Origin: Candidatus Parabeggiatoa sp. nov. 2
GTDB lineage: Bacteria > Pseudomonadota > Gammaproteobacteria > Beggiatoales > Beggiatoaceae
NCBI GenBank assembly: GCA_002085445.1
Contig: NBMI01000153.1
Coordinates: 1-38,566 of the forward strand
DNA length: 38,566 nt
Direction: 5' to 3'
The notes under the pieces were generated by a model. It was given only the letters and a program-made list of their open reading frames with translations. It did no database searches and had not been told where the DNA came from. A program made the position numbers and the translations under genes. Below are positions 1,562 to 26,040 of the stretch, one piece after another. Positions within the stretch are counted from its first letter, which is position 1. Each line of letters opens with the position of its first letter.

Positions 1562-4500
1562 ATGCCATTATTTGGTAAAGCCAAGAAAACTCAAGAAAAC
1601 GCGGCCGAGAAAAAGCCGAACGGCCGCGAAGCGGCCAAAGAAGCGAAGAAGAAAAAACCCGTGGGCAAACACGATGGCCGCATTGCGCTATTCGGATGCC
1701 GTGCCGCGGGTAAAACCGTCTATATTGGTTCACTTTTCCATGAATACCATGGCCGTGCGTCGGGCCTTGATGTCACTTTTCTGGGTGATCGAAGTGCCGT
1801 CTATCTGGCTGATCTGCAAAAGTCCATTCTGGCTTCCCCAAGAACTTGGCCGGCACCGACTGTGGTTGAAAATGAGGTGCGTTTAAAACTGGAGCTTGAG
1901 AGTGCCTTAGCCACCTCTTCACCAAAGGTTAATCTACAACTGTTTGATCCGCCCGGCGAGTGGTTAGCACTCGGTGGTGACGAACAAGCGGCCCCCGATA
2001 AACAAGGAGGCGCAAAAGCCATGCGCGACTTTGTGGCGGAGGCTGATGGAATATTTTTCTTTTTTGAGCCAGACAACTTTGCCTTCAAAGTGTTGCGCGG
2101 CAAAATCAAAAAGGCGCTCCCGGAGCTCCAGAAGTGGGAACAAGACGTTGATGAACGGCTAGGCCTTCTGGTAACCGCATTAAAAGAAAATGCGGATAAT
2201 CTTTTAGTACCATTGCAATCGGAAAACTTTCTGGTTCCGTTAGTGGAAAAAGACGATCAGGAGGAGATGGTTCGTGAGGTTGACGGGATTTTGAGTGGTG
2301 CTGAGGCAAATAGAGATTCACTGCTAAAAGGCCTGTTTCGGGACGCGGAGTTAAAGTATCTGCTCAGAAAGCATGAACTGAATGTCGAGCCAATCCTAGC
2401 GAATGCCCAAGAAATCAGCCAGACTCGCACACCCACTGGTAAAGCGGTTGATGTACTGTTTCGCATTATTGAGCTGATCCAAGAAAGTGCGGCTAGTGAA
2501 GACAAGGAGAGTGAGACCAAATTGTTGCAGAACATCGAGTCCTATTTTCGGATCGAAAGTAACAATCGCTTGATGGCCGCAGTGACGCGACTTCAGGAAA
2601 TCAGTAAGAAGGCCGAAGAAGACTCTACGGCCGAAAACCGTTCTATTGCCGTGATCATCGCTAAAGCTGATGAACTGGATGTGTTTCGCCAATCCCCCGA
2701 CCGGCCTTATGTGCTGATTCCGCCTCATTTGGAACACCTGAAATTCAAACAGGGCCCGGATCGATTGGATAACCTCCGAGATGCCTTGAAAAGCTATTGG
2801 GAAAAGCAAGATACCCGTTGGGGTTCTATTATTGATCAGCTCTTGACGGGGCCCTTCAAAAGCTTGTTTCTCAAGCTCATGAGCTTTCCTGGCGATTTTC
2901 AGATTTTCTTTGTCTCCGCCGTCGGGGAAGCTAAACGCGATAAGAACGGCTTTATGCAACCGCCCCAAGGTGAGGACGCGTTTAAGCCAGCGGGGGTTGA
3001 TAAACCGGTACTTTGGACGGCCCAGCAGATTTATAGTCATGCCATGATATATCGGGCGATTCGCCGCATGCTTCGCTGGGCCATTTTGCCCATTGTTCTG
3101 CTCTTGATCCCGGCGGCTCTATTTACCTATAATGCCTTATTTCAATCGGCGCTGGAGCGGGAAACTGATCCGACACTTCAAACGGCGGCCACTCAGTCCT
3201 ATAAGTGGTTAGTGAGTCTGCCTATGCCACCCAAGGCGGCTGTGACAACACGTATTGCGTTTTTGGATTTTAACCAAAAGTGGGCCGCGTACCAGCAACA
3301 AGTCGGTGATCTGTTTTCACGCCCAGATAAACGCCCGGATGAGGCACTTGAACAGGCACTGGCCCAATTAGAGCTTCTCATCCAAGGCAGCACCGGCCTC
3401 GTTCATACCGTGGCCCAACACCAAGATTCCTTGCGTACCGATGCGGCTCGCTTGGAGAATACGTTGCGCCAACCTGAGCGGCTGCGGTTGCACATTCTCT
3501 ACGCCAATTTCATGCTTAACTGGCTAAGAGACCATTTTGACAGCAGTTGGGCGGTTGACGATTCGGCGTTAGAGGCCCATCTGAAAACGCTTCGAGCATC
3601 AGTCGACAAGTTGCGCTACCAGTTAAAGGCCACCCCCAAGGAAGTCAGTTTATGGCCTACTTTGGAACAGGCGATAGCGCAATTGCAACTTCAGGAAATC
3701 GTCTTTCGCTTAACACCGATTCGTTCACAACTGGCCGAATTGGATAAGCAATACCGTCGCTCTCAAGGTTGGTTTTTACCCGAATGGAGTGCCGATGAAC
3801 CGACTGCTCCGAAAAACATCGAGGCCTTGCTGCAACAGGAAAAGGCGGTAAAGCACTTACATAACAAATTGGCGACGATAAAAGCGTTGTTTTCCGAGGT
3901 TAAGCCAAACCTACAACGCGTTTCTGCACTCAAGGAACGCCTGGTTAAACTCCAACAGTCTCAGGCCCAAACCCAAAAACAAGTTGAACAGTTGGCAGCA
4001 AGTATCCAGGTAGAATACACCCACCTTCTGGCGTGGCAAAAGTACAAGGAACTCCAGAACCGCTTAGAAGAACTCAATCTGACGGGTAGCCAAAATGAGA
4101 TAGCCTCTCTACTGACTCAAGCAGAGGAAGTGTACAAACTCGCCGCCGGCAAGATTGTTTCCGGTAACGTGATGAAAATCGCCCAAGGAAAAGCGCGTGC
4201 GCTCCAGAAAATGCAGCAAGCGATTTCTTCGGCGATTGTTGCCCTTAAGAACTACCAACAAAATGGGGTGCCGATGAAGTTTAGCTTTACTAACCCGCTT
4301 GCGATTACGTTGTCGGTGCCATTGGCCGATGGCCGGGAACAGACGCTGCCAAAAGGCCAGTCATTCCGTTGGTTGCCTACGCTGCCTTTACCAATGGTTT
4401 TAATTGCTAACGCCTCGGATATTGAACTGCCAGTTGCGCCACTGATGGTGCCGGGTGACTTTAAGAAAGATATACTCATCAAGGTAACCGGCCAAAACCA

Positions 4501-4588
4501 AACGCTCATTCTGCTGGATACTTGGATGAGCTATGCCGAAGCCTTGGAATCCGTCTTGGTGCCCTACGATGGGGCATGGATTCATTAG
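1562..4588 (+). CDS. Large P-loop NTPase (GTPase-like motifs) with a predicted membrane segment and a long C-terminal coiled coil; function unknown
   Basis: Strong RBS agaggagg. Lys-rich N-terminus. Walker A/G1 is GCRAAGKT, followed by a DPPGE (DxxG, G3-like) box, an AKAD (NKxD-like) box and SAVG. A hydrophobic helix AILPIVLLLIPAALFTY lies near aa 500. The remaining ~450 aa are heptad-rich, Q/L/E/K-rich sequence. Confidence 0.8.
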   Translation: MPLFGKAKKTQENAAEKKPNGREAAKEAKKKKPVGKHDGRIALFGCRAAGKTVYIGSLFHEYHGRASGLDVTFLGDRSAVYLADLQKSILASPRTWPAPTVVENEVRLKLELESALATSSPKVNLQLFDPPGEWLALGGDEQAAPDKQGGAKAMRDFVAEADGIFFFFEPDNFAFKVLRGKIKKALPELQKWEQDVDERLGLLVTALKENADNLLVPLQSENFLVPLVEKDDQEEMVREVDGILSGAEANRDSLLKGLFRDAELKYLLRKHELNVEPILANAQEISQTRTPTGKAVDVLFRIIELIQESAASEDKESETKLLQNIESYFRIESNNRLMAAVTRLQEISKKAEEDSTAENRSIAVIIAKADELDVFRQSPDRPYVLIPPHLEHLKFKQGPDRLDNLRDALKSYWEKQDTRWGSIIDQLLTGPFKSLFLKLMSFPGDFQIFFVSAVGEAKRDKNGFMQPPQGEDAFKPAGVDKPVLWTAQQIYSHAMIYRAIRRMLRWAILPIVLLLIPAALFTYNALFQSALERETDPTLQTAATQSYKWLVSLPMPPKAAVTTRIAFLDFNQKWAAYQQQVGDLFSRPDKRPDEALEQALAQLELLIQGSTGLVHTVAQHQDSLRTDAARLENTLRQPERLRLHILYANFMLNWLRDHFDSSWAVDDSALEAHLKTLRASVDKLRYQLKATPKEVSLWPTLEQAIAQLQLQEIVFRLTPIRSQLAELDKQYRRSQGWFLPEWSADEPTAPKNIEALLQQEKAVKHLHNKLATIKALFSEVKPNLQRVSALKERLVKLQQSQAQTQKQVEQLAASIQVEYTHLLAWQKYKELQNRLEELNLTGSQNEIASLLTQAEEVYKLAAGKIVSGNVMKIAQGKARALQKMQQAISSAIVALKNYQQNGVPMKFSFTNPLAITLSVPLADGREQTLPKGQSFRWLPTLPLPMVLIANASDIELPVAPLMVPGDFKKDILIKVTGQNQTLILLDTWMSYAEALESVLVPYDGAWIH

Positions 4589-4592
4589 CAGT

Positions 4593-4812
4593 GATCAGTG
4601 ATCAGAAGTCCAAACTTTAGTTTGGCCGGAGTCCAAACTTTAGTTTGGCAGTATTAAGTACAACGAATTACGCGGATAAACGAATTGAGATTGGGAGAGT
4701 TTGGCAGTCAGTATTAAGTACAACGAAACGCAGTGGCGGAACGCCTATTACGCGGATAAACGAATTGAGATTGGGAGAGTTTGGCAGGAGTCCAAACTTT
4801 AGTTTGACAGCG
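4593..4812. repeat. Composite repeat block: REP-like palindromes (GGAGTCCAAACTTTAGTTTGG) flanking two copies of the dispersed 'GTACAACGAATTACGCGGATAAACGAAT' element
   Basis: Hairpin tccaaactttagtttgga at 4631..4648 and 4790..4807; family-B units at 4651..4707 and 4711..4787. Confidence 0.85.
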
Positions 4813-5104: not shown

Positions 5105-7351
5105 ATGAGCATCAAGAAGCTTGAATTGTTTCTAGCCATATCGGGGGGCGTTGTGTATTGGCAAACCCCCGGGCTGAAGGGGCATAAAGGGTTGATAAAC
5201 TCTGTTGATGAGCCTATTCAGTATGGCCTTGATTTGAGAGATAACCGAGGCGTGTTTGCTACTTTTAACCATCTTATCAACGGTGAACACTATGTTTCGC
5301 TCACCTGCGGTGTGCTTGGGAAAGATGATAGAGGAAGGTCGGACGCGCCCTATCGGTTTTATGCCGTTTTGCCGTGGGCGATTTACCAAGAACTGGGGGC
5401 CGATGCTTTTGCGTTGGCTCGTTGGGCGTTTAGTAAGGAAGTACTGGGCCGAAGATATGGGAACACCAAAACGGAGGAAGAGGGCGAATTATTTTCGCCT
5501 CAGGTCTATAAATATTTTTCGCCTATCAAGGCGGATCCTCAGCCTGATCTGAGTTTCCTGAGAAGGCAGTTGCCTGATGAAGAGCGATTGGGGCAGTTTT
5601 TAGGGGCATTGATTGCGGGTGTGGCCCCACCACTGCGTTTTCGGGACGAGGGATATGCCGGCCAATGGTCTTCTTATGATCCTTGGAGTAACCGGATACC
5701 GACGAATGGAGAGCGCTTATTAGAAGAACTCTATTTGTGTCTGCCTTATGAAGTACGCTCATGGTGTAATATTTCAACGGCTTGGAAACGGTGTGATAGT
5801 GAGAAGTTTCCGTTTCAGTTGGCATTGGATGGTGAATCTTCGGAGAATGCCGCAGCAGCTTTAGCACGGGTCGTTGATGGCATGGCGGAAGTGGCCCAGC
5901 GCAAGGCCCAAACGGTGGTCAAACAGTATGTTACGCCGCTGTTTCAAGCCATCGCGAAGAATGACGATAAACGCATTAATCAGTTGCGCCGCACTTTTAC
6001 GCTCCAGTCGATCAGTTGGCCGTCTGCACCTAAAACCATCGCTCGCACTGGGGGGGGTGTTCGTGGTGAGTTTAAGCAAGCGCCTACCAGTGCGAGTGCT
6101 CAGAGTTGGATGGCTTTGGTAAAGCATCCGCTTGTGATTGGCGCGGTGGTTGTGGCGTTGGTTGGTGGCTTTGGAATGGGTGGAAGGTTGCTTTCTTCCA
6201 AAGATGGCTTGGAAGAGATAACGGCTCAATTAGAGAAGTTACAGAATGAGCGAAATAGTTTTGAAACTCAATTAACTGAGTTACAAGGTCAATTTCAGCC
6301 GGTTAAGCAAAAGAGGGATGAGTTACAAAAGGAGTTGGATGAGACAAAGGGTGAAATCGACTCTCTCACGGGGCAAATTGCCACTTTGGAAAAAGACAAG
6401 ACTTTGTTAACGCAAGAACTGGCTAGAATCAAGAGTGACAAAACTGGAAGCGACAACCTGAACAAAGCATACGGTGAAATTACTAGGTTGAAAACGGACT
6501 TAGGTAACTGCGAAAAGGAAAAGGGCAACTTGACTGAACAATGCAAAACGGACAAGGGCAACTTGGCTCAAAGCGTGGCAAAAAAGAGTCAAGAATATAA
6601 TGTCTTGGTTTCGGACTTAGACACATGCAATACGGCAAATGGCTACTTGGGTCAACAATTGGTTCAATGCGGAGGTGAAAAGGACAACTTGGCTCAAAGC
6701 GTGGAAAAAAAGAGTCAAGAATATAATGTCTTGGTTTCGGACTTAAACATATGCAATACGGACAAGGGCAAATTGGCTCAAGACGTGGCAAAAAAGAGTC
6801 AAGAATATAATGTCTTGGTTTCGGACTTAAACATATGCAATACGGACAAGGGCAAATTGGCTGAACAATGCCAAACGGACAAGGCTAATTTGACTCGACA
6901 ATGCCAAACGGACAGGGACATTAACCTTAAGGGCTGGAAGTTAATCGTCACTTCTGGCAGTGACTCTAAGAGAAATTCACTCTCTGGAAACATTCCGAGA
7001 AAAGGGTTCCTTATTCTAAGAAGGAATGTCTCTGAGACAGAACCGAGAGTTTCACTAGAACACAGGAAGGGCGCTACCTTTGATGGGATGTTATGGAATG
7101 AAGGGAAAAAGGGTAAAAATAAAGCGTCATTGATATTGAAGGACAGGAACAACGAGATCGTTGATCAAGTTGATCAATGGTATGCTGGTAAAAACGACGA
7201 CAAACGTACCATGGAACGAAAACGCCCTGATGTTGGTGGGAATGATCAAGAAAATTGGTGTACTGCTTCAGGGTATAATTACAATTGGCGTGATGATAAT
7301 TCTCCTTACGATACGGGTACACCCGGCAGTCGGAATACCTGTGCTGAGTAA
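5105..7351 (+). CDS. Membrane protein with an N-terminal cytoplasmic domain of unknown function, one TM helix, a coiled coil with in-frame 27-aa tandem repeats, and a C-terminal lamin-tail-like (LTD) domain
   Basis: RBS aataggag. TM helix LVIGAVVVALVGGFGMGG. Three 81-bp repeats at 6697..6860 encode LAQSVxKKSQEYNVLVSDLNICNTDKGK. The C-terminal segment KGWKLIVTSGSD...GFLILRRNVSE...GMLWNEGKK...ASLILKDRNNEIVDQVDQW matches the LTD fold pattern (GW-L, a conserved W-N-G pattern and a D-x-V-D pattern). Confidence 0.8.
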   Translation: MSIKKLELFLAISGGVVYWQTPGLKGHKGLINSVDEPIQYGLDLRDNRGVFATFNHLINGEHYVSLTCGVLGKDDRGRSDAPYRFYAVLPWAIYQELGADAFALARWAFSKEVLGRRYGNTKTEEEGELFSPQVYKYFSPIKADPQPDLSFLRRQLPDEERLGQFLGALIAGVAPPLRFRDEGYAGQWSSYDPWSNRIPTNGERLLEELYLCLPYEVRSWCNISTAWKRCDSEKFPFQLALDGESSENAAAALARVVDGMAEVAQRKAQTVVKQYVTPLFQAIAKNDDKRINQLRRTFTLQSISWPSAPKTIARTGGGVRGEFKQAPTSASAQSWMALVKHPLVIGAVVVALVGGFGMGGRLLSSKDGLEEITAQLEKLQNERNSFETQLTELQGQFQPVKQKRDELQKELDETKGEIDSLTGQIATLEKDKTLLTQELARIKSDKTGSDNLNKAYGEITRLKTDLGNCEKEKGNLTEQCKTDKGNLAQSVAKKSQEYNVLVSDLDTCNTANGYLGQQLVQCGGEKDNLAQSVEKKSQEYNVLVSDLNICNTDKGKLAQDVAKKSQEYNVLVSDLNICNTDKGKLAEQCQTDKANLTRQCQTDRDINLKGWKLIVTSGSDSKRNSLSGNIPRKGFLILRRNVSETEPRVSLEHRKGATFDGMLWNEGKKGKNKASLILKDRNNEIVDQVDQWYAGKNDDKRTMERKRPDVGGNDQENWCTASGYNYNWRDDNSPYDTGTPGSRNTCAE

Positions 7352-7364
7352 GTAATAACGATGA

Positions 7365-8137
7365 AGAGTACAACGCAACTTCGTTAAGGAACGCCCATAA
7401 CGAGATAGACGAATAAAACGACATTGCTCAATTCGTTTATCTTGCAATATGCTTGCGGAGCAAACCTGAATGGGTTCCTACGCAGAACGTCAATGCTAAG
7501 CCAGGGGCGTTGCCCTTGGCTATATTAATATCGCCCAAAGCCCAAACAAAGCCAGGGGCGATGCCCCTGGCTATATTAATCTCGCCCCGTTGGGGCTCAG
7601 TTCCAAGGGCGATGCCCCTGGCTATATTAATCTCGCCCTGTTGGGGCTAGAAAGGTAGCTGCGAAGTTTCGTTGTACTTTTCGTCATTCGTTTATCGGCC
7701 CGTAATTCCTACTATCATTCGTTTATCGGCCCGTAATTCGTTGTACTATCATTCGTTTATCCGCGTAATTCGTTGTACTAAGTACCGAAGCACATATTAT
7801 CAGGTATTTTGCAGGAATCAAAAGGGCTTTGCACGTGGGCTTGTAAGGGCTTTGCACGTGGGATTGCCCCTACGAACCGTCGTGTCATGTAGGGGCAATC
7901 CTTTATGGTTGCCCCTTTGGCCCACAATTTTGTACGGTCACAAATTGCGCGTTTGTCATTTCGGTTTCTTTGAACGGAAAAATCTTGATAAATCTTGATA
8001 AATCTTGATAAATTAAAGTTTGGACTTCTGCCAAACTCAAGTTTGAACGACTGCCAAACTAAAGTTTGGACTCCTGCCGACGACTGCCAAACTAAAGTTT
8101 GGACTCCAGATCAGTGATGAGTAAGTAATAACGATGA
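7365..8137. repeat. 773-bp intergenic block made only of repeat-family units: family B, ccaggggc hairpin triplet (7495..7650), family E hairpin element (7826..7917), (AAATCTTGAT)x3 (7978..8009) and REP-like palindromes (8011..8112)
   Basis: Every sub-unit recurs elsewhere in the window. The block is bounded by a 24/25-bp direct duplication (7341..7365 and 8114..8138). Confidence 0.8.
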
Positions 8138-9363
8138 AAAATAACCCTAACAATTGGTTTGAACTACTATTCGAGGTGAAACCATGGCAAGATGGCATGG
8201 CCCTTTCCGACCGTTCCTTACACGAACACGAAGCCCAACAAGTCATTTTAGCCCGTCTTTATGGCGCAGTTCGTTGGGGAAAAGACTGTTTTGGGCTGCA
8301 CCCAGCCGGAAAACTGATCTCAACATGCCAACAAGTTGATGACCAAACCTGGGAATACCAACTGACAGAAGCCATTGCCATCACAATCACCGGGCAAATC
8401 TTAGTGTGTGGGCCATGTCAACAGACACTCTCGTTGGCTGACAGGGGCCTATTGGTTGCGGTACCGATTGAACAAGAATCACTGCCAGCGGCCCTTTGGT
8501 ATCGAGCGGAAATAAAATTCTATCCAGAAGACGAAGCCAACGCACTTAGACAAGGCGTTCCGATAGCTCGTTGGCTAGGAGAAGAAGGCCTAGACGAAAA
8601 CTACCTTCCTCCCGCGATGAGCTTGGGTGCCCATCCCCATCTATGGCAACAAGCGACAGCGATAGCCGAGTGCATTGAACGGATATTGGAGCAAGTCACG
8701 GTACCTAATCCATGGTTGCTCAATGTTTGGGTTCCGTCTGGTGATGAAGAACGCCTTATGGCGATGCCCCCAATGGAATGGTTATGTCTCCATCTGCGTA
8801 GCCTTCGGGGATTAGCCTCACAAGACAAATTACGTCCCTTAATAAAACACCTTGAACATGTCCAGAAAAAACCGTTATCACTATTAAATCTAACCGAAGG
8901 CGTGAAAGACATAAAAACCGCTTGGGAAATAGTAGAAGCACGATTGCCCGAAGGAATAACCATCAAAACAGACAAAGGGCTTTTTAAATCAGTTAAACTA
9001 CCCATAGAAAGAGAACGTTGTTTGGACAAATCCCAATGTATTGTCATCACTATTCCACCGGAACTGAACAACACGCCCTTACTACTTGCCGTACCTACCA
9101 CACTTTACAAGAGTGAAGAACTTAATGATCCTAAAAAATGGGCAATCAACCTAAATAAACCGTCAGAAAGTGGCCGAGGCTATCACAACAACAGAAGGCT
9201 TAATTTCTTCCAAAAGACGGCCGTTAACAAGGAAGAAGCCTACTGGGTTTGTGAACTACCGCGTCCGCTCACGATAGTCAACCATTATGGCATACTCACA
9301 CTCCTTGCCAACGTAGATGATCTCAACGAACTAGTAGTCTGTCAGGAGTCCAAACGACGCTAA
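8134..9363 (+). CDS. Hypothetical protein, 409 aa, no recognisable domain
   Basis: Long ORF with sensible composition, flanked by REP-like elements and a strong downstream terminator hairpin. Confidence 0.6.
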   Translation: MKNNPNNWFELLFEVKPWQDGMALSDRSLHEHEAQQVILARLYGAVRWGKDCFGLHPAGKLISTCQQVDDQTWEYQLTEAIAITITGQILVCGPCQQTLSLADRGLLVAVPIEQESLPAALWYRAEIKFYPEDEANALRQGVPIARWLGEEGLDENYLPPAMSLGAHPHLWQQATAIAECIERILEQVTVPNPWLLNVWVPSGDEERLMAMPPMEWLCLHLRSLRGLASQDKLRPLIKHLEHVQKKPLSLLNLTEGVKDIKTAWEIVEARLPEGITIKTDKGLFKSVKLPIERERCLDKSQCIVITIPPELNNTPLLLAVPTTLYKSEELNDPKKWAINLNKPSESGRGYHNNRRLNFFQKTAVNKEEAYWVCELPRPLTIVNHYGILTLLANVDDLNELVVCQESKRR

Positions 9364-9405
9364 AGTTTCGCTCCGCGAAACTTTAGCGTCGTTTTTAGTT
9401 TGGCA
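9364..9405 (+). terminator. Rho-independent terminator-like hairpin
   Basis: cgacgctaaagtttcgc-tccgc-gaaactttagcgtcg (15-bp perfect stem) followed by tttttag, directly after the stop of 8134..9363. Confidence 0.7.
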
Positions 9406-9905
9406 GTATTAAGTACAACGAATTCCGCGGATAAACGAATTGATATTGGGAATTACAATCTGTTTGCGGAGCAAACCTGAATGGGTTCCTACGCAGAGCG
9501 TCAATAATTAATGATTAATGATTAATGATTAATGATTAATGAATTAAAGAATAGTTAACTTGTTGTTTTTAAAATAATAAAACTGAAGCGGAATAAAAAT
9601 TGGATCAAGTTTTAGAACCAAAGGAACCTCCTTTTCATCACCCCAGGAGGAGCGTGAAAATACCCATAGATTTTTTTTAACGTTTTTCATTTTGTGTGGG
9701 TATTTTATTTAGCCACAACTCCCTTAGTAGTGTTTGTAGTGTTTGTAGTGTTTGTAGTAGGCTTGTAATTGCCTTAACGAGATTAAGTTGCTAAAGCAAC
9801 TACTGCAAACAAGCAAGATTAAGTTGCTAAAGCAACTACTACAATCGTCATTCGTTTATCCGCGTAATTCGTTGTACTATTCATCATTCGTCTATCCGCG
9901 CTTCT
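9404..9905. repeat. Composite intergenic repeat block: family B units (9404..9455, 9845..9905), the tgcggagcaaacctgaatgggttcctacgcag repeat (also at 7445..7493), (TAATGAT)n, (TAGTGTTTG)x3 and two copies of gattaagttgctaaagcaactact
   Basis: Direct string matches to other loci in the window. Confidence 0.8.
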
Positions 9906-9969
9906 GTCATTGTACTACTTTAATCTTCATTTTTCATTTTTCATTACTATACCGATGAGGAGGACTCCG

Positions 9970-11592
9970 ATGCAAAACCTATTCAAGTCCTTGATTTTAT
10001 TGTTAACGCTAGCGATTTTGGTGAACGGTTGTAGTACGGAAAGTCCGCTTGTCAAAAGCGTCGCCTCACCTGGGCATGTTCCATCTTCGGGAGATGCAGA
10101 TGGATTTCTCATTGTGGACTGTCTCTTGCCTAGCCAAGTGCGTCAGTTGGAACCGGGTACCATTTCTCTTACGCAGCGCCGCCCCATTAAAACTTCTATC
10201 TCGGACTGTGAAATTCGTGGCGGCGAATATGTAGTTCAGGATCGTAGTGATTATGCCGCTGCCTTAAAAGTGTGGCTTGCCAAAGCCAAAGCTGGTGATC
10301 CCAAAGCCCAAACCTATGTCGGTGAAATTTATGAAAAGGGTTTGGGTGTTCCACCCGATTACGAAAAGGCTGCCCAATGGTATCAAAAAGCGGCCGCACA
10401 GGGATATGCCAGCGCCCAAATGGATTTAGGCTTTTTGTATGAAAGAGGCCTTGGAGTCAAACAGGATTCTGCGATGGCCGAAAAATGGTATCGTCAAGCT
10501 GCGGAATTAACCGAAGAGGCCGATATCGAGCTTGTTGCACCTACCCAGAGTAGCAACGAATGCGAAGAAGTCGCGCGTTTACGCCAAGAGCTAGAAGAAA
10601 CCAAACCGCTTGTTGCACCCGTCCAGAGTAGCAACGAATGCGAAGAAGTCGCGCGTTTACGCCAAGCGCTAGAACAAACCAAACAAAAAGTGGCCGAATT
10701 GCAAAATAAACTCCAAATGCATGAACGTGGCGCAAAACGGCGGCACTCCAAGAACAAGCGGCGAGAGACTGGCTCAAACAAGTTACCGTTGGGAACTTAC
10801 CACGCCTTGATCATTGGCAATAACCAGTACCAACATTTGTCGAAATTAAAAACGGCCGTCAATGATGCCAAGGTAGTCGATGAGTTGCTCAGAACACGTT
10901 ATGGCTATAAAACGACGGTGTTGCTGAATGCGAATCGCTATCAAATCCTTAATGCACTCAACCAATTACGCCAGCGCCTGACTGAAAAGGATAATCTGCT
11001 GATTTATTACGGTGGGCACGGTGAATTGGATGAAGTCAATCAGCGTGGGCACTGGTTGGCAGTGGATGCCGAACCGGACAGTACCGCAAATTGGATTTCC
11101 AATATAACCATCACAGACATACTTAACACGATGAGTAGCAAGCATATTTTAGTCGTATCGGACTCTTGCTATTCAGGGACAATGACGCGCTCGTCGCTGA
11201 CGCGCTTAGAAGCGGGGATGACACCAGAAAAACACCTTAAATGGATAAAGAAGATGTTAAAGAAACAGTCGCGCACCGCATTAACGTCTGGTGGTATCAA
11301 GCCGGTGTTAGACACCGGTGGTGGACAACATTCCATTTTTGCCAAAGCGTTTATAGACACTTTGGAAAATAATACTGAAATCATGGCCGCTTACAAGGTA
11401 TATCGACAAGTGGCGGCGTTGGTGAATGATGCGGCGGCGGCAACTCGTTTTGATCAGGTGCCAGAATATGCGCCAATCCGGTATGCTAAGCATGAAGCCG
11501 GAGAATTTTTCTTTGTGCCGAAGGGGGCATCCACCAAAATAGCTGTTTTGGGCACTGATGCTGGAGTCCAAACCTTTAGGTTTGGGCTTTAA
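9970..11592 (+). CDS. Lipoprotein with Sel1/TPR-like repeats, a duplicated 26-aa linker repeat and a C-terminal caspase-like (peptidase C14) domain
   Basis: Preferred start ATG 9970 after RBS gaggagg; the longer ORF from 9910 lacks an RBS. Signal peptide plus lipobox LLLTLAILVNGC. Three Sel1-like repeats. Caspase core ALIIGNNQY...NDA...LLIYYGGHGE (catalytic His-Gly) ...KHILVVSDSCYSG (catalytic Cys). A 78-bp in-frame duplication at 10530..10690. Confidence 0.85.
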   Translation: MQNLFKSLILLLTLAILVNGCSTESPLVKSVASPGHVPSSGDADGFLIVDCLLPSQVRQLEPGTISLTQRRPIKTSISDCEIRGGEYVVQDRSDYAAALKVWLAKAKAGDPKAQTYVGEIYEKGLGVPPDYEKAAQWYQKAAAQGYASAQMDLGFLYERGLGVKQDSAMAEKWYRQAAELTEEADIELVAPTQSSNECEEVARLRQELEETKPLVAPVQSSNECEEVARLRQALEQTKQKVAELQNKLQMHERGAKRRHSKNKRRETGSNKLPLGTYHALIIGNNQYQHLSKLKTAVNDAKVVDELLRTRYGYKTTVLLNANRYQILNALNQLRQRLTEKDNLLIYYGGHGELDEVNQRGHWLAVDAEPDSTANWISNITITDILNTMSSKHILVVSDSCYSGTMTRSSLTRLEAGMTPEKHLKWIKKMLKKQSRTALTSGGIKPVLDTGGGQHSIFAKAFIDTLENNTEIMAAYKVYRQVAALVNDAAAATRFDQVPEYAPIRYAKHEAGEFFFVPKGASTKIAVLGTDAGVQTFRFGL

Positions 11593-11655
11593 AAATCCTC
11601 TAAAAGTACTGATGCTGGAGTCCAAACCTTTAGGTTTGGATTCGCCAAAGCTAAA
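11557..11655. repeat. REP-like palindromic units (CTGGAGTCCAAACCTTTAGGTTTGG) x2 that overlap the 3' end of the caspase gene
   Basis: Hairpin ccaaacctttaggtttgg twice; same family as 4631, 8018, 21592 and 23755. Confidence 0.85.
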
Positions 11656-11799
11656 GCTTTGGAAGGAATGCGAGTGCTTGGATGAGCGAGCGGCCCCCGG
11701 CGCAAGTCTGGGGTTGACGATAGACAACCAAACGGTGAAATCATTGACTTTGACGCTAGGCGCTCAAGCGGACTATACAATGAGCTAATCATGGGGCAT

Positions 11800-12400
11800 A
11801 CTAATCATTCATGCCAACTTGGATTTTGTGCCTGTTCTCAGTTATCAGTGTTCACTGATCATTTTTTTTCAGTGTTCACTGATCAGTTTTCAGTTTTCAG
11901 TGATCTGTTCTCAGTGAAAAGTGTAAACTGATAACTGAAACATAACTCTGATAACTGATCAAGAAGTGTTACTCTGTGTACCTGAAGTGATCTCTGTGTA
12001 TTTGATAACTGATAAGAATCGACGAAAAAATCCAAAACACACCCCCAACCCCTCTATCGATGTGAGTCAAGCCGAAGTAAGTCCCTTTACGTCGGGGATT
12101 TAGGGGTGTGTTAAATCGTCGCTGATCCTAATTGATAACTGATCACTTATAACTGAAAAACTGAAAACTGATCACTGATTGTTGATCTCTGAAAACTGAT
12201 CTAGGACTTACGCATTGACAAACTTAAATTTTTGTATTCACGATTAATATCAATGAGTTATGAATATTCTACCCGTGGCTAAATTGATGAAAATTGCCCA
12301 AAAACCCTTGTATTTAAAAGGAATCATAAATATTTTAATCTGTCAATGCGTAAGTCCTATTCTCAGTGATAACTGATCAGTGATAACTGATCTGTGAATA
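11800..12400. repeat. Low-complexity and inverted-repeat region (GATAACTGA/CAGTGATCAG motifs; a 10-bp-stem hairpin at 12040..12120; 17-bp inverted repeats ggacttacgcattgaca at 12207 and 12336)
   Basis: Read directly; the gacttacgcattgaca motif recurs at 14213, 14608 and 14720. Confidence 0.7.
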
Positions 12401-12417
12401 AAAAAAAGGAGAATCTT

Positions 12418-12732
12418 GTGATTTTAACGACACTAGAAGGCGTTCCGGGTAAAACCATTGTGGAACATTACGGCCTGGCACAGGGCAGTACGATTCGAGC
12501 CAAACACATTGGCAAAGACATCATGGCGAGCTTAAAAAATCTTGTGGGTGGCGAACTGAAGGCATACACCGAATTGTTGCAAGAGTCTCGTCAAGAGGCC
12601 GTTGAGCGTATGGTTCAGCAAGCCGAAGAATTGGGGGCTAATGCGGTGGTTAATATCCGTTTTGCGACATCCTCGGTGGCTCAAGGGGCCGCGGAACTTT
12701 TTGCGTATGGTACAGCTGTTAAGGTGGAATAG
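12418..12732 (+). CDS. ybjQ: YbjQ/UPF0145 (DUF74) family protein
   Basis: ILTTLEGVPGKTIVEHYGLAQGSTIRAKHIGKDIMASLKNLVGGELKAYTELLQESRQEAVERMVQQAEELGANAVVNIRF is a canonical YbjQ fold sequence. The GTG start at 12418 sits behind RBS aaggag; the ORF track starts 24 nt earlier at 12394. Confidence 0.8.
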   Translation: MILTTLEGVPGKTIVEHYGLAQGSTIRAKHIGKDIMASLKNLVGGELKAYTELLQESRQEAVERMVQQAEELGANAVVNIRFATSSVAQGAAELFAYGTAVKVE

Positions 12733-12734
12733 CG

Positions 12735-13187
12735 ATGGATGGTTTGGAAATTCTCATTTTTCTGTTTTTGCTTATACTTGGTTATTTCTCAGGGACTTAC
12801 TTTGAGAAACGCCATTATAAAAGTATCCGAGAGCGAGAGCGTAAAACGCTGCATGTCCCCATGGTGACTTTCGGCGCTAAGCAGTCATTGCCAGAGGCGC
12901 AAGATGCCCAGTTGTTTGTTGGCAGTGTTGTCATTTCGGTTGACTACTTTAAAATGATTTCGGCCACGTTGCGAAATTTAGTCGGAGGCCGAGTCATGGT
13001 TTATGAAAGTCTGCTAGATCGAGGGCGTAGAGAGGCCCTGTTGCGGATGAAGGAGGAAGCGATGGCGTGGGGTGCTAATCAAATTATGAATGTGCGGTTG
13101 GAAACCGCCGCGATAGGGGGCCGCTCAGGTAATAACAGTGGCCCAGGTTCGGTTGAAGTGATTGCGTATGGCACGGGAATTCGTTAG
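12735..13187 (+). CDS. Membrane-anchored YbjQ-like (DUF74) protein
   Basis: N-terminal TM helix LEILIFLFLLILGYF, then a second DUF74-like domain (SATLRNLVGGRVMVYESLLDRGRREALLRMKEEAMAWGANQIMNVRLE). Start is 3 nt after the upstream stop. Confidence 0.75.
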   Translation: MDGLEILIFLFLLILGYFSGTYFEKRHYKSIRERERKTLHVPMVTFGAKQSLPEAQDAQLFVGSVVISVDYFKMISATLRNLVGGRVMVYESLLDRGRREALLRMKEEAMAWGANQIMNVRLETAAIGGRSGNNSGPGSVEVIAYGTGIR

Positions 13188-14075
13188 ATGTTCATAAGAT
13201 ATAAACAACCGAAAAAACCGCCTGAAGGAAACGTAATTAAGCACAGTCCACTGCTTAATTTTGCCTATTTGTTGGGCACGGTGGTAATCATCAGTGCAGT
13301 GATTTTCGTGGCGCTAGGATTTTTCGCGGATTGGCTGGCTGTCAGGATAAGTCCTGAAACAGAGCGCAAAATTGGTGATATGTTGTTCCACACCATTTCA
13401 GACGAAGAAATTGTGGACGACAAGCGTATCCAATATCTTGAGGAACTCTTGGAGTCCTTGCCTGAATCAGGAGAAACGACTCGTCTGCCCTTGACGATTC
13501 ATTTAATTAAGAGTGATGTCGTCAATGCCGCCATTATGGCGGGGGGACATGTTTTCATTCATACGGCGCTGCTGGAGGCGGTGGAATCGGAAAATGAACT
13601 GGCTTTTGTGCTGGCACATGAATTGGGGCATTTTCAAAACCATGATCCCACCAAAAGTTTAGGGCGTTCACTGGTTTTTCTTGTGGCTTCAATGGCACTC
13701 GGCATTGGCACATCGGAATCCGGGGGGGTGCCGGATATTGTTTTTCGGACTGGAGAACTGACCAGTCTGAGCTATAGTAGAAAGCAAGAAAGGGCGGCTG
13801 ATCTTTATGGTTTGTCTAGGGCCATTAACCGCTATGGACATGGAAGCCATAGCCTTGATTTCTTTAAGCGGCTTGAAGAGGAGGAACAGGAACAAGGGCG
13901 CTTGCTCAAAGTGTCTCAATATTTCTCAACTCATCCCCTGAGCAAGGATCGGATCGTCATCCTCAACAAGGCCGCGGCCGAAAAAGGATGGAAAATGGAA
14001 GGAGATGCCAAGCCTTTGCCAGAATGGTTGCATTGTCCAAATATGGAAGAATGCGAGCCGGACGCGGAGGAATAG
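13188..14075 (+). CDS. M48-family zinc metallopeptidase (HtpX-like), membrane-anchored
   Basis: HEXXH motif in FVLAHELGHFQNHD. N-terminal TM helix. The start overlaps the upstream stop (TAGATG). Confidence 0.8.
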   Translation: MFIRYKQPKKPPEGNVIKHSPLLNFAYLLGTVVIISAVIFVALGFFADWLAVRISPETERKIGDMLFHTISDEEIVDDKRIQYLEELLESLPESGETTRLPLTIHLIKSDVVNAAIMAGGHVFIHTALLEAVESENELAFVLAHELGHFQNHDPTKSLGRSLVFLVASMALGIGTSESGGVPDIVFRTGELTSLSYSRKQERAADLYGLSRAINRYGHGSHSLDFFKRLEEEEQEQGRLLKVSQYFSTHPLSKDRIVILNKAAAEKGWKMEGDAKPLPEWLHCPNMEECEPDAEE

Positions 14076-15126: not shown

Positions 15127-15202
<76 letters not shown>

Positions 15203-15234
15203 AATTGAACTAAACTAATAGTTAATTGTTTTAT

Positions 15235-15310
<76 letters not shown>

Positions 15311-15329
15311 ATATTTTATTTTCCGATAC

Positions 15330-15404
15330 TGGCTGAGTGGCAGAGTGGTCATGCAGCGGTTTGCAAAACCGTGTACGTCGGTTCAATTCCGGCCTCAGCC
15401 TCCA
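15330..15404 (+). tRNA. tRNA-Cys(GCA)
   Basis: Acceptor ggctgag/ctcagcc; anticodon stem gcggt/accgt with loop ttGCAaa; T-arm gtcgg-ttcaatt-ccggc; CCA encoded. Confidence 0.88.
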
Positions 15405-15417
15405 ATTTAATCCTTAT

Positions 15418-15826
15418 GCCCGGGTGGCGAAATTTGGTAGACGCAAGGGACTTAAACTAATTTGAGCACCTAAGGCGAAATCTTTAGGTGAATGGAGTCT
15501 AATTCGGTGAAACCTGTCAAATGGCAACGCCGAGCTAAGCTCAATTCAGTAACAGGCTAGGGGTTCCCCTTTCCCTTTCCCTTTCCCCTTTCCCCTTTCC
15601 CATGGCCTTTTGCTGAGTTGAGAAAGTGTAGAGACCATACGGCTCCTGCCTTAGTAAATGCCTCTCTCCCCTGAAGGAAATTTTATAGGCAAAGACAGGG
15701 TCCAGACCACAAACACATCTATTAATTGATAAATGTCAATTGATAACGTGGCAGTGAAAGCTGTAGTTGGTAAGAAAATCCCTTGGTGGAGACACCGTAC
15801 CGGTTCGAGTCCGGTCCCGGGTACCA
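15418..15826 (+). tRNA. tRNA-Leu(UAA) split by a group I intron; exons 15418..15453 and 15775..15826
   Basis: 5' exon gcccgggtggcgaaatttggtagacgcaagggactt ends at U34. 3' exon aaaatcccttggtggagacaccgtaccggttcgagtccggtcccgggtacca restores the loop cttAAaa, a long variable arm, the T-arm and CCA. Confidence 0.85.
15454..15774 (+). ncRNA. Group I (IC3-like) self-splicing intron in the tRNA-Leu(UAA) anticodon loop
   Basis: Inserted between U34 and A35 and ends with G. Intron 5' end aaactaatttgagcacctaaggcgaaatctttaggtgaatgg, the P4/P5-like segment ggtgaaacctgtcaaatggcaacgccgagctaagctc and the P7-like segment gtagagaccatacgg closely parallel the cyanobacterial/plastid tRNA-Leu intron. Contains a (CCCTTT)n microsatellite at 15563..15601. 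Confidence 0.8.
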
Positions 15827-18064: not shown

Positions 18065-19801
18065 CTATTTTTTAGTTTTGTTTTTCGGTGGCGTTTGTTT
18101 GGATGCCAATTTCAATGGTATCCCCAAGTGTTCTGCAACCGCCTGCAATTTTGCCTTGTCGATAAGCCGTCTGAGCAAATCAAACTCGTTAGTCAAGTTG
18201 CGAACTTCTTGCTTTTGACGCAAGAATTCTATTTCCTGTTCTTGCTGGGCCATTTTCACCCGATGGTTGGCTTCTTCTATTTCCAGTTGCGCCTTGTTTT
18301 CTTGTTGTTGGCGCGATAGGCGGGCTTCTAACGCTTTAGCCTCAACCAAGTCGTCTTGCTCTTGAGTCAGTAATTTGAGCGCGGCGGCTTGTTTTTTGAG
18401 TGTTGTTTCCCGTTCCAGTTGCAACTGTTCTGCCTGCATTTTTGCCTCGTTCATGCGGCTTTCTTCGGCTATGGCATGTAACGTTTGTTCCGTTTGCAAG
18501 GTTTTTTGCTTGTTGTTGGTTTCATTGTCCAGTTTGGCTTGTTCTAGTTCCTTTGCCTGTTCCTGTTGCAATGTCGCTAACTGATTTTCGTATGCCAGAC
18601 GCGCCTGTTGGGCTTGGAGTCGTTGTTCCGATGTCTGCCTAGCGAGGGCAGTTTGTTCTTCCAGTTGAATCTTATGCTGGGCTGTTTCTTGTTCTTGTGC
18701 TTGAATTCGCAACTGTGAGGCTTGCTTGGCGAGGGTGGTTTGTTCTTCCAGTTGGAGTTTCGTGCGGAATGTTTCCTGTTCTTTGTTAAAACGGACGGCT
18801 TCTTCGGCTAATTTTAACTGGAAGGCTTCGGTTTGTTTGCTTTGCTTAACCTGCTCAATGGCCGCGTTGGTTTCCGCTTCACGGGTTTCTTTTAGGTGGC
18901 GACTTTGGAGTTCCTTGTTGTGAATTTCATTTAGCATGGTTAAGCGACTAATGCGGGCCGCTTGTTCTTGTTGATGACGAAAAGGGGCCTGTAAGTCTTG
19001 CCAAAGCTTTTGCGAGCTGACGTATGCTTCTCTAATCTGGACGGTGACAATTTTAATGCCCAAGCCTTCGTGGGTGACACTGTCTTCGTGATTACGACTT
19101 TCTGTCACGGCCTCAATGCGTTTGGTGAGTTCTTCGATAATGGGGGCTTTGTCGGTTAAAACCTCTTCCACACTCATGGTGGCAATTTTATCTTTGATAG
19201 CGGCTTCGGCTTGTTCACCCAGTTGGGCGTTGACTATGCCAAGGGGATCGCGGCTGTCTGAGAAATCCAATTTGCGGTAAGCAATTGAAAAGTCTGATAT
19301 TTGCCATTGTAAGTAGGCCAGCATATTGATGCCTTGTTTTTCTTGAGTAATGCACCTTGCTACGATACCAATGGTTTGCATGGCAGCAGGTACCACTAAG
19401 TAGGCATCGGTGTTGGGGTTGTAGCGAAAAGATTTTCCTAAGCCAATCGTCACCGGGGCACCGCGCCCTAAGCGCGTATGAACGACATACGCATTGGGAG
19501 GAATAAGAATCCGTTTCCAGCGCCAAAAGCCGGTTTCACGGATTTTTATCGGTTCTTTTTCCAGTTGTAGTTCTTCGGAGGTAACGAGGTTGCCTTGTGG
19601 TGGTTGGTTTGATGAAGTGGACGTTGGGGAGAGGTTTGCGTTAGAAACGGAAGAGTTGTTAGCTTCTTCTTCTGCTCCAATTCCTTCGTCACCAAATTCA
19701 AAAGAGAGTTCTTCGTCAGCACTTTTTTCCATCGCTTCCATCTTTACACGGGTATTGGCTTGACGATTAAATGCTTCGGCGGCTGAGATACGTTTTAACA
19801 T
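18065..19801 (-). CDS. Flotillin-like SPFH/Band-7 domain protein with a long Q/E/A-rich coiled-coil C-terminus
   Basis: SPFH core FWRWKRILIPPNAYVVHTRLGRGAPVTIGLGKSFRYNPNTDAYLVVPAAMQTIGIVARC; flotillin-type EA/Q-rich heptads; RBS aggaagg upstream on the minus strand. Confidence 0.8.
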   Translation of the reverse strand: MLKRISAAEAFNRQANTRVKMEAMEKSADEELSFEFGDEGIGAEEEANNSSVSNANLSPTSTSSNQPPQGNLVTSEELQLEKEPIKIRETGFWRWKRILIPPNAYVVHTRLGRGAPVTIGLGKSFRYNPNTDAYLVVPAAMQTIGIVARCITQEKQGINMLAYLQWQISDFSIAYRKLDFSDSRDPLGIVNAQLGEQAEAAIKDKIATMSVEEVLTDKAPIIEELTKRIEAVTESRNHEDSVTHEGLGIKIVTVQIREAYVSSQKLWQDLQAPFRHQQEQAARISRLTMLNEIHNKELQSRHLKETREAETNAAIEQVKQSKQTEAFQLKLAEEAVRFNKEQETFRTKLQLEEQTTLAKQASQLRIQAQEQETAQHKIQLEEQTALARQTSEQRLQAQQARLAYENQLATLQQEQAKELEQAKLDNETNNKQKTLQTEQTLHAIAEESRMNEAKMQAEQLQLERETTLKKQAAALKLLTQEQDDLVEAKALEARLSRQQQENKAQLEIEEANHRVKMAQQEQEIEFLRQKQEVRNLTNEFDLLRRLIDKAKLQAVAEHLGIPLKLASKQTPPKNKTKK

Positions 19802-21591: not shown

Positions 21592-21774
21592 ATTGTCCAA
21601 ACCTAAAGGTTTGGACTCCAAGCTTTGGACAACACAATCAATCAATTGTCCATTGGAGTCCAAAGCTTCAGCTTTGGACAACACAATAAATTGTCCAAAC
21701 CTAAAGGTTTGGACTCCAGCCAAGACATTGGAGTCCAAAGCTTCAGCTTTGGACAACTTAGAGAGGAATTCATG
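21592..21774. repeat. REP-like palindrome cluster (tandemly duplicated ~97-bp unit carrying ccaaacctttaggtttgg and ccaaagcttcagctttgg hairpins) between hynS and isp1
   Basis: Strings read directly; the duplication unit begins inside the hynS stop region (acaacaataaattgtccaaacc...). Confidence 0.85.
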
Positions 21775-25639: not shown

Positions 25640-26040
25640 TACATCATTCGTTTATCCGCGTAATTAGTTGTACTCAAGCGCAATTAGTTGTAGTATATAT
25701 CAATAACTACAAGGATTCGTTATAAAAATGTATTTTTCATCCTTGCTTATATTCAATCCTTGTAGTTAGTTAATTCGTTTATCCGCGTAATTAGTTGTAC
25801 TCAAGCGTAATTAGTTGTACTCAAGCGCAATTAGTTGTACTCAAGATTAATCCGCCATACTCAATATCAATAACTACAAGGATTCGTTATAAAAAGGGAT
25901 TTTTCATCCTTGCTTATATGAAATCCTTGTAGTTAGTTAATTCGTTTATCCGCGTAATTAGTTGTACTCAAGCGTAATTAGTTGTACTCAAGCGTAATTA
26001 CTTGTACTCAATATTAATCCGTTGTACTCGATATCAATAA
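25640..26040. repeat. ~140-bp complex unit x3 (family B attcgtttatccgcgtaattagttgtactcaagcg... plus the aactacaaggatt ... aatccttgtagtt 13-bp-stem hairpin element)
   Basis: Three successive near-identical units read directly, starting 4 nt after the hynL stop. Confidence 0.85.

Follow-up and report, generated by a model that had tools for sequence, protein, structure and literature searches.

A probable caspase-domain lipoprotein of Candidatus Parabeggiatoa belongs to a widespread family predicted to act in the cell envelope

Here we describe a gene for a caspase-family protein on the forward strand (positions 9970–11592) of a 38,566-nucleotide (nt) stretch of Candidatus Parabeggiatoa sp. nov. 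2 DNA (contig NBMI01000153.1), which we refer to as the window. The open reading frame (ORF) is real and intact, and its product is a 540-amino-acid (aa) lipoprotein precursor composed of Sel1 repeats, a coiled-coil linker and a caspase domain. As a whole, the data are best explained, in our moderately confident judgement, by a lipid-anchored, extracytoplasmic endopeptidase of the C14 family that would process or regulate envelope proteins, whose substrate would lie elsewhere and whose linker carries an old 78-bp duplication. The original prediction, made from the letters of the sequence, had proposed an exported lipoprotein with a competent C14 domain and a Sel1 module, and this proposal is supported by the conservation of the lipobox cysteine, an invariant His–Cys dyad, a model with the caspase fold and the existence of kinase–caspase fusion proteins.

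Predicted export and N-terminal domains

The coding sequence was delimited from the ORF list together with Pfam matches to Sel1 and Peptidase_C14. Two in-frame starts lie upstream of the ATG at 9970: a TTG at 9910, used in the mechanically called ORF, and an ATG at 9955, used in the NCBI record, where the start lies 15 nt farther 5′ and the protein measures 545 aa. A Shine–Dalgarno sequence, AGGAGG (9958–9963), is found 6 nt before the ATG at 9970, a spacing that favours the 540-aa start over the annotated one, and the gene calls of relatives begin at the methionine matching this ATG; the choice of start has no effect on the mature protein. NCBI holds proteins 100% identical to the window protein from metagenome-assembled genomes of Ca. 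Parabeggiatoa or Beggiatoa sp., and also under the name 'Beggiatoa sp. 4572_84'. Below, L numbers denote the homologous loci or contigs that we compared and P numbers the homologous proteins, the window protein being P0001.

The N-terminus of the precursor reads MQNLFKSLILLLTLAILVNG up to Cys21 and is laid out as a lipoprotein signal peptide (aa 1–20; 9970–10032 with the Cys21 codon at 10030–10032), having Lys6 in the n-region, a hydrophobic stretch (SLILLLTLAILV) with a core of 12 residues, a lipobox-like LVNG that places Gly directly before Cys21, and Ser at position +2. In an AlphaFold (AF2) model built on 90 homologues, with a mean predicted local distance difference test (pLDDT) score of 80.6, the signal peptide corresponds to a helix at aa 2–20 and is followed by disorder at aa 22–40. 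A signal peptide with a lipobox cysteine stands at the same place in approximately 100 of 120 homologues, those lacking the cysteine being mostly truncated at the N-terminus or equipped with a type I signal peptide, and Cys21 is conserved in at least 90% of the sequences in each of two homologue alignments. The lipoboxes of relatives include VSGC, found in the nearest paralogues, LSAC and IFAC. Conservation of this kind supports export of the protein and its lipid anchoring in the cell envelope. According to the sorting rule of Escherichia coli, a +2 residue other than Asp sends a lipoprotein to the outer membrane by default; Ser at +2 in the window protein, and the lack of Asp at this position in any of the 101 homologues with a lipobox, would make the outer membrane the default destination.

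Directly after the anchor comes a family-specific beta domain of approximately 50 residues (aa ~41–90; 10090–10239), which is characterized by the motif IVDCLLPxQVRxLG...RRPIKT...DCEIRGGEY and by eight columns that are invariant across the 90 sequences (D50, C51, L53, P54, C80, R83, G85 and Y87). Cys51 and Cys80 probably form a disulfide, as would be expected of an invariant cysteine pair in an oxidising compartment. The domain was modelled with a pLDDT of approximately 80 in the full-length protein, had no match to a Pfam family and, when modelled alone as a 63-aa segment (pLDDT 72), yielded no Foldseek match in PDB with an E value below 4. A profile search with this domain recovered 1,101 clusters at 50% identity, always with the match near the N-terminus; all of the full-length hits that we checked carried Sel1 and 7 of 10 also gave a C14 match, the other three looking cut short. 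The profile thus appears to retrieve essentially only the Sel1–caspase architecture. Behind it lie two Sel1 repeats and a capping helix (aa ~95–180; 10252–10509), recognized by Pfam PF08238 at 79.2 bits against a cut-off of 30.7 and matched to Sel1 proteins in PDB with a best E value of 2.6e-55; AF2 placed five helices at aa 95–177 with pLDDT above 90.

An intact caspase domain under purifying selection

The C-terminal part of the protein is a Peptidase C14 domain of the caspase–haemoglobinase fold (aa 276–515; 10795–11514), identified by Pfam, Foldseek and conservation. The match to Peptidase_C14 (PF00656) covers aa 278–500 and profile positions 3–223 of 233, at 85.6 bits (cut-off 21.4; E 5e-24). 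Both motifs named in the original prediction are present, YYGGHGE with His350 (codon 11017–11019) and DSCYSG with Cys400 (codon 11167–11169), and the two dyad residues are invariant in 90 full-length homologues as well as in a 16-sequence alignment of the domain; in the set of 120 homologues, GHG is kept in all and DSCY in 119. Asp299 and Ser399 are likewise invariant across the 90 sequences, and Asp398 is present in at least 90% of them. The AF2 model of the domain has pLDDT values mostly of 86–98, with approximately 67–77 in three 10-residue blocks, and Foldseek searches against PDB returned MALT1, AtMC9, Yca1, TbMCA2 and Geobacter GSU0716 (3bij) with E values from 2e-11 to 1e-7 and a probability of 1.00.

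Alignment of the dyad to C14 peptidases of known structure succeeded directly for the histidine and indirectly for the cysteine. Phmmer paired YYGGH350G with YYAGHG of MALT1, and D299 with the Asp of the MALT1 PLVD motif, which we take to be the S1 residue Asp365. The phmmer and profile alignments to MALT1 end before the cysteine, so that they gave no residue-level alignment of Cys400 to a solved caspase, and a 133-aa query around the dyad returned only noise. Cys400 was instead placed by score differences between wild-type and mutant sequences: against the family profile, AtMC4 scored 33.4 bits as wild type and 28.1 bits as C139A over the same range (5.3 lower), and Yca1 scored 31.4 bits as wild type and 28.5 bits as C276A (2.9 lower), the latter alignment being cut short. 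Because the profile holds a single invariant Cys column, that of Cys400, these drops map the known catalytic cysteine to it. The spacing Asp398-Ser-Cys400 equals that of what we presume to be Asp462-Met-Cys464 in MALT1. With Asp299 and Asp398 as candidate acidic S1 residues, cleavage after Arg or Lys, as in metacaspases and paracaspases, is predicted. Together these observations support a C14 domain that is intact, selected and, by prediction, catalytically competent.

Comparisons with relatives point the same way as regards selection. The closest relative of the window gene is L009, at 98.3% identity (1.7% gene-wide divergence), and a tandem duplicate of the entire Sel1–caspase gene is found in the close relative L010 (4878–6446, P0004, and 7174–8790, P0003; 95% mutual identity), each copy being 94% identical to the window gene at the nucleotide level; the window has a single copy, with a GC content of 48% (window, 44%). 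The ratio of nonsynonymous to synonymous substitution rates (dN/dS, or omega) was 0.09–0.21 for the caspase domain and 0.12–0.27 for the N-domain with Sel1, as is typical of purifying selection in the structured domains.

A large family with envelope-protein neighbours

The window protein is, to judge by homology searches, a short-linker member of a large and widespread family. A word-indexed search gave 3,997 relatives at E ≤ 1e-5 among 8,000 candidates scored, and all but three of 120 listed relatives, most of them 650–940 aa long, contained both Sel1 and C14. A scan of species-representative genomes confirmed at least 595 stretches, distributed over Gammaproteobacteria, Acidobacteriota, Nitrospirota, Desulfobacterota, Methylomirabilota, Bacteroidota, Myxococcota and others. 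At NCBI such proteins are annotated as 'caspase family protein'.

To describe the usual neighbours, ORFs were called in 92 sequences (91 loci and the window) and clustered blind to annotation, and the largest non-caspase clusters were identified by Pfam; neighbours within 3 kb were then counted at the 48 loci flanked on either side by at least 3 kb. An autotransporter gene, mostly immediately downstream on the same strand, was found at 34 of these 48 loci, a lipoprotein hydrolase gene at 21 and a Ser/Thr kinase gene at 15, with all three together at 11. The surface proteins carry Calx-beta or Ig passengers. The hydrolase is an alpha/beta-hydrolase-like protein of approximately 280 aa that has its own lipobox in 30 of 36 cases. 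The kinases have one membrane helix at aa ~350–390 (~455–488 in one longer kinase), followed by a periplasmic part that is TPR-like or consists of PKD and DUF4384. Further neighbours, in other contexts, are DUF4384, OmpA and DUF2807 genes and additional caspases.

In the ORF clustering, kinases were merged with caspases because real kinase–caspase fusion proteins exist. Two of them, L039:12479-14416 (-) and L091:11558-13543 (+), belong to a Ca. Multivoradales genome and combine a Hanks-type kinase with one transmembrane helix (aa 351–373 and 364–392) and a caspase domain of the same clade, at 41–50% identity. Since the kinase requires cytoplasmic ATP, the fused caspase domain must lie across the membrane, and a location outside the cytoplasm is thereby supported for this caspase clade. 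The fusion at L039 adjoins a Sel1–caspase, a lipoprotein hydrolase and a 1710-aa autotransporter. In Thiomargarita (L012, 2027–3802, minus strand; L013, 3639–5657, minus strand), a second caspase, fused to DUF4384, lies divergently upstream of the Sel1–caspase, and in Nitrosococcus and Methylotuvimicrobium (L001 and L002) a DUF2807–OmpA–DUF4384 cluster is located downstream, with a CHAT or C14 protein nearby.

Decay of the autotransporter partner in Parabeggiatoa

Downstream of the caspase gene, a tblastn search with Calx-beta/autotransporter proteins from L003 and L005 detected an autotransporter beta-barrel relic of approximately 140 bp on the forward strand (11689–11830; 49% identity over 85 aa, E 7e-16), which contains an in-frame stop. 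L009 has a longer relic (2407–2646; 74% over 80 aa, E 4e-31) in which that stop recurs, and the window lacks 101 bp that are present in L009 and L092. On L003, a related Beggiatoaceae contig, the caspase gene is separated from YbjQ by four Calx-beta/autotransporter genes. Other samples of the species have the gene order of the window and also lack the autotransporter. The stop shared by the window and L009, together with the absence of the partner from the other samples, indicates that the partner was lost before these strains diverged; since the autotransporter has decayed while the protease has been kept under selection, the protease must act on something encoded elsewhere. The original prediction had overlooked this decayed partner just downstream and also that the architecture itself is common and already catalogued.

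An old duplication in the linker

Between Sel1 and the caspase domain lies a helical, Pro-punctuated and fast-evolving linker (aa ~186–270; 10525–10779), which AF2 modelled with low to medium confidence as helices at aa 191–211 and 224–257 separated by Pro-containing hinges. Across the family this spacer ranges from 48 to 511 aa with a median of 387, the Beggiatoaceae proteins having the shortest, and long members have a coiled-coil region of 300–450 aa and an extra beta domain ahead of the caspase. The linker contains a tandem repeat (10530–10685; Tandem Repeats Finder period 78, 2.0 copies, score 275) of which unit 1 (LVAPTQSSNECEEVARLRQELEETKP) occupies 10530–10607, with the Cys198 codon at 10561–10563, and unit 2 (LVAPVQSSNECEEVARLRQALEQTKQ) occupies 10608–10685, with the Cys224 codon at 10639–10641. 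As 78 nt make 26 codons, the repeat is in frame, and each 26-residue unit corresponds to one hinge and one helix of the model. The duplication had been described as perfect, with only 3 nt differing; it is in frame and in tandem as stated, but the units differ at 6 of 78 positions (10542, 10543, 10544, 10589, 10597 and 10607; 92% identity), 4 of them within the 22-aa core, and a separate repeat search gave 5 of 77 (94%). At the protein level, 4 of 26 residues differ (T/V, E/A, E/Q and P/Q), and a single change is synonymous.

Nor is the duplication very recent, as had been proposed. Both L010 paralogues already have two units, which are mutually more diverged than those of the window. At the bases that tell the units apart, the window gene has CCTACC in unit 1 and CCCGTC in unit 2; both L010 genes likewise have CCTACC in unit 1, with CCCGCC or CCCACC in unit 2. 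The tail of unit 2 in the window (GAACAAACCAAACAA) matches unit 2 elsewhere. Two diverged units with shared unit-specific bases (CCT or CCC) imply that the duplication is older than the 6% divergence of these genes. Within the window, the central 44 nt of the two units are identical, and both have TGC (Cys198, Cys224) where all other units have AGC or CGC; an identical centre, a derived Cys codon common to both units and differences clustered at the edges are best explained by a gene-conversion tract that homogenised the unit centres. A disulfide between Cys198 and Cys224 is speculation.

Both one-unit alleles (L009/P0002, P0264, P0270 and P0272) and two-unit alleles (P0001, P0265–P0268 and P0271) occur within the two closest clusters at ≥90% identity, those of P0001 and P0002. 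In these clusters, Cys is present in both units of every two-unit allele; one-unit alleles invariably have Ser and, at the variable position, either Glu or Ala. Among 14 full-length close relatives (a fifteenth is a 165-aa fragment), none had three units. One-unit alleles share their start with unit 1 and their end with unit 2, as unequal recombination would produce. The 78-bp repeat would accordingly be read as an old in-frame duplication of a linker helix that has been partly homogenised by gene conversion and occasionally collapsed by unequal recombination. An earlier suggestion that recombination maintains a linker of variable length is supported as regards the polymorphism (one- and two-unit alleles; spacers of 48–511 aa). 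We see in this variation in length the mark of a genome that, in giant sulfur bacteria, is rich in repeats and prone to recombination. The locus does not resemble a contingency locus varying in phase or length, with its array of many short, near-identical units that change often in number, there being only two units, 92% identical, and only one- and two-unit alleles among the 14 full-length relatives. We consider an assembly artefact unlikely, since the units differ at six sites and several independent samples yielded contigs with this two-unit allele.

For the repeat alone, a different history would be a recent re-duplication, in the lineage of the window, of a one-unit ancestor that already carried the Cys codon. 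Such a history would account for the TGC codon common to both units and seen in no one-unit allele or L010 unit, for the identical central 44 nt and for the one-unit state of L009, the closest relative at 98.3%. We nonetheless regard it as improbable: 6 differences in 78 positions amount to several times the 1.7% gene-wide divergence from L009, the CCTACC and CCCGTC signatures match the respective L010 units, the unit 2 tail matches unit 2 elsewhere, and the clustering of differences at unit edges fits a central conversion tract.

Proposed function and alternatives

The autotransporter, hydrolase and kinase neighbours of the family, together with the kinase fusions, make processing or regulation of envelope proteins the most likely function. 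In the mechanism that we propose, the precursor would be exported by Sec, cut by signal peptidase II before Cys21 and lipidated on that residue, with the outer membrane as the probable destination. The disulfide-bonded beta domain and the two Sel1 repeats would be a likely docking module for a protein partner, the helical linker would probably be a spacer and/or an oligomerisation element, and the caspase domain would cut after Arg or Lys. It would mature or release the passenger of an autotransporter, provide a transmembrane kinase with proteolytic input, or both; in the Parabeggiatoa lineage, where the autotransporter is reduced to a relic, the protease would act on a product encoded elsewhere.

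Several points count against this proposal. Gene neighbourhood alone does not tell a protease from its substrate, and none of the usual partners (an intact autotransporter, kinase or hydrolase) is found within the 38-kb window. The Asn at lipobox position −2 falls outside the strict pattern [LVI][ASTVI][GAS]C, and Asn is found there in 5 of the 101 homologues with a lipobox, for example in LLNSC of Nitrosococcus; assignment to the outer rather than the inner membrane, and to a periplasmic rather than a surface orientation, follows rules derived from E. coli, and that of the S1 pocket depends on sequence alignment and on the residue numbering of MALT1. The linker has a dN/dS of 1.3–2.4 relative to the L010 paralogues, a value based on 20–30 substitutions. 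Finally, our literature search found no biochemical data on any family member.

A more far-reaching version, which we advance only tentatively, is that the family constitutes an unrecognised extracytoplasmic caspase pathway of Gram-negative bacteria, made up of an outer-membrane-anchored Sel1–caspase, a dedicated autotransporter barrel, a lipoprotein hydrolase and a single-pass, eukaryote-like Ser/Thr kinase, of which the Parabeggiatoa gene would be a stripped-down survivor, re-targeted once its autotransporter was lost. The caspase would there be either a switch that, by proteolysis, informs the cytoplasm of events in the envelope or a maturase of the autotransporter.

Exported clan-CD cysteine peptidases with Arg/Lys specificity are known, among them the gingipains and fragipain. 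By analogy, the protein could be a protease that is exposed on the surface or released and that serves to acquire nutrients or to attack neighbouring cells or hosts, its caspase domain being shed by cleavage of the linker and the neighbouring autotransporter being an unrelated surface factor. Besides this precedent, an Arg/Lys-rich composition of the linker (KRRHSKNKRR, aa ~256–265) and of the loop after Cys400 would suit such shedding, as would neighbours that are themselves surface proteins with Calx-beta or Ig passengers. No component for surface export of lipoproteins was recognised nearby, however, the association with membrane kinases and the kinase fusions suggest a periplasmic signalling context, and the family is found mostly in free-living chemolithotrophs and methanotrophs of sediments and the sea; we therefore consider this explanation doubtful.

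A role as cytoplasmic executioner of cell death is unlikely, and we give very little credence to its fullest form, an anti-phage or cell-death effector that works with the conflict-like genes upstream and for which the hydrophobic N-terminus is a mere membrane tether. Two of the upstream genes do match BrnT_toxin and DO-GTPase2, and other samples of the species show these genes in the same order, but no upstream gene matches a defence system in PADLOC, barring coiled-coil noise, and these genes are not conserved with the family, whereas the envelope proteins are. They are moreover set apart from the caspase gene by a perfect 20-bp, terminator-like hairpin with a T-rich tail (TTTTTAGTTT; 9352–9394, forward strand), located where the upstream 409-aa gene has its stop codon, and by a 606-bp spacer filled with dispersed repeats, so that the caspase gene looks like its own transcription unit. 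The best match to a caspase model is the NCBIfam 'caspase, EACC1-associated type' (NF047832), at 68.2 bits against a cut-off of 140 and with no EACC1 partner recognised nearby; the generic 'caspase' match in PADLOC spans only positions 4–130 of a 453-position model. A conserved lipobox cysteine, a conserved cysteine pair that fits an oxidising compartment and fusions whose kinase and caspase domains lie on opposite sides of the membrane all speak for the extracytoplasmic endopeptidase instead.

Equally hard to credit is a non-proteolytic pseudo-enzyme that would serve an outer-membrane barrel as a Sel1 adaptor lipoprotein, as AlgK serves AlgE: the pairing of a Sel1 lipoprotein with an adjoining beta-barrel resembles that system, AlgK matches are weak (NCBIfam, 29.8 bits; PDB, E 5.6e-4), and pseudo-orthocaspases are known (PMC6426788), yet the dyad replacement that defines them is absent here. 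In the 90 sequences, which come from different phyla, His350, Cys400, Asp299 and Ser399 never vary and Asp398 hardly does, and the caspase domain evolves at an omega of 0.09–0.21.

Other features of the window

The 3′ end of the caspase gene overlaps one of two exact 32-nt copies of a palindromic element resembling repetitive extragenic palindromes (REP; GAGTCCAAACCTTTAGGTTTGG; 11554–11585 and 11608–11639, forward strand), 54 bp apart, which a repeat search revealed. The first copy encodes the last approximately 13 residues and is followed by the stop codon, and the paired copies have a predicted RNA fold of -47.7 kcal/mol (z = -6.0). Alleles with a single copy have a different tail that is 13 aa longer. 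Because the conserved protein ends at approximately FFFVP (aa 517), the C-terminal tail is probably irrelevant. Further copies of the element, which measures 22–32 nt, lie at 21597–21618 and 21695–21716, with diverged ones at 21656 and 21731; these distant copies (21597–21752) sit between hydrogenase genes.

Another repeat, of approximately 29 nt (AGTACAACGAATTCCGCGGATAAACGAAT), is present in more than 30 copies in the window, in both orientations and often as short intergenic arrays (4657–4776, 7681–7785, 25644–25968, 29985–30138 and 32384–32599); one inverted pair (9412–9440 / 9850–9878) flanks 409 nt upstream of the caspase gene. Heptamer arrays of the AATGATT and TAACTGA / TCAGTTT types occur in both flanking spacers (9503–9547, 11838–11938, 12125–12200 and 12359–12397).

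The upstream block comprises a BrnT toxin gene (354–731), genes for a 1008-aa DO-GTPase2 protein (1562–4588) and a 748-aa coiled-coil protein (5105–7351), and two genes whose products belong to no family (7672–7998 and 8134–9363, the latter of 409 aa). It resembles a conflict system, its order is repeated in other samples (L092), and the strong hairpin described above separates it from the caspase gene. Downstream, two YbjQ-family genes and an M48 metallopeptidase gene form a tight cluster (12394–14075). We considered YbjQ–YbjQ–M48 as functional partners and rejected them, as they are syntenic in Beggiatoaceae contigs only and not at other family loci, which amounts to local synteny.

Farther on, two tRNA-Gly(GCC) genes and a tRNA-Cys gene (15127–15404) precede a group I intron region (15419–15790), in which RF00028 matched at 58.6 bits (15444–15724); the intron appears to split a tRNA-Leu(UAA)-like gene at the anticodon, which ARAGORN did not call. 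In a 756-aa protein (32747–35017), an FGE-sulfatase domain is confined to the final 240 residues, and no family was assigned to the first 500; domains of this kind are frequent fusion partners of bacterial caspases and kinases. Two large ORFs, of 578 aa (18065–19801, minus strand) and 628 aa (36297–38183), had no family match.

Relation to known systems and significance

The combination of Sel1 with a metacaspase is already known, and the family is uncharacterised. In the surveys of Asplund-Samuelsson et al. (2012, PMC3501461; 2016, PMC4933709), Sel1 was found in 6% (40/671) of prokaryotic metacaspases, and an architecture of three Sel1 repeats followed by a metacaspase was listed from a metagenome. 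These Sel1-metacaspases, or orthocaspases, share with the window protein the position of Sel1 N-terminal to C14 and the His–Cys dyad; unlike the present description, the surveys contain no lipoprotein signal, Cys-pair N-domain, variable coiled-coil spacer or neighbourhood of autotransporter, kinase and hydrolase. Literature searches combining metacaspase or C14 with Sel1, autotransporter, lipoprotein, DUF4384 and periplasm likewise returned only surveys, with no description of the module, the lipoprotein nature or the N-domain.

MALT1, Yca1, AtMC4, AtMC9, TbMCA2 and GSU0716 have the same fold, the dyad motifs and an Asp two residues before the catalytic Cys. They differ in sequence (15–22% identity) and in being cytosolic, whereas the window protein is predicted to be exported and lipid-anchored, and the latter has no death domain, Ig domain, prodomain or recognisable Ca-binding p10 motif.

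Closer parallels in cellular setting come from the envelope. AlgK is an outer-membrane Sel1/TPR lipoprotein that docks on the beta-barrel AlgE, so that here too a gene for a lipoprotein with Sel1-like repeats stands beside one for an outer-membrane beta-barrel; AlgK, however, has no enzyme domain and serves polysaccharide export, whereas in the Sel1–caspase family a protease-bearing lipoprotein stands beside a barrel of the autotransporter beta-domain type (PF03797), and the window protein scores far below the cut-off of the AlgK model (700 bits). NalP of Neisseria and SphB1 of Bordetella are lipidated surface proteases that mature the passengers of autotransporters or of two-partner secretion. 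A similar coupling of a lipid-anchored envelope protease to type V secreted proteins would explain the autotransporter neighbourhood; these two are subtilisin-like serine proteases and themselves autotransporters, unlike a C14 cysteine peptidase on a separate lipoprotein. In the ExoR–ExoS/ChvI system of Rhizobiales, a periplasmic Sel1 protein binds a sensor kinase and is controlled by proteolysis, and ExoR-like Sel1 proteins carrying Peptidase_C14 are reported from other orders (PMC4550343). The likeness lies in a periplasmic Sel1-repeat protein acting together with the part of a membrane kinase that faces the periplasm, and the difference in that ExoS is a histidine kinase, as opposed to the Hanks-type Ser/Thr kinases here, and that ExoR is a substrate and not a protease.

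The window itself is more ordinary than its family, containing an intact family member, a decayed partner gene and a linker of polymorphic length; the part worth pursuing is the lipoprotein nature, the N-domain and the module of autotransporter, kinase and hydrolase. Bacterial homologues of caspases are usually discussed as cytoplasmic effectors of cell death or defence. The window gene would be a clean example of a large clade designed for the cell envelope (approximately 1,100 clusters at 50% identity), whose lipoprotein signal, disulfide domain, envelope neighbours and fusion topology lead to hypotheses that are testable in Methylotuvimicrobium, Marinobacter, Zhongshania and Nitrosococcus.

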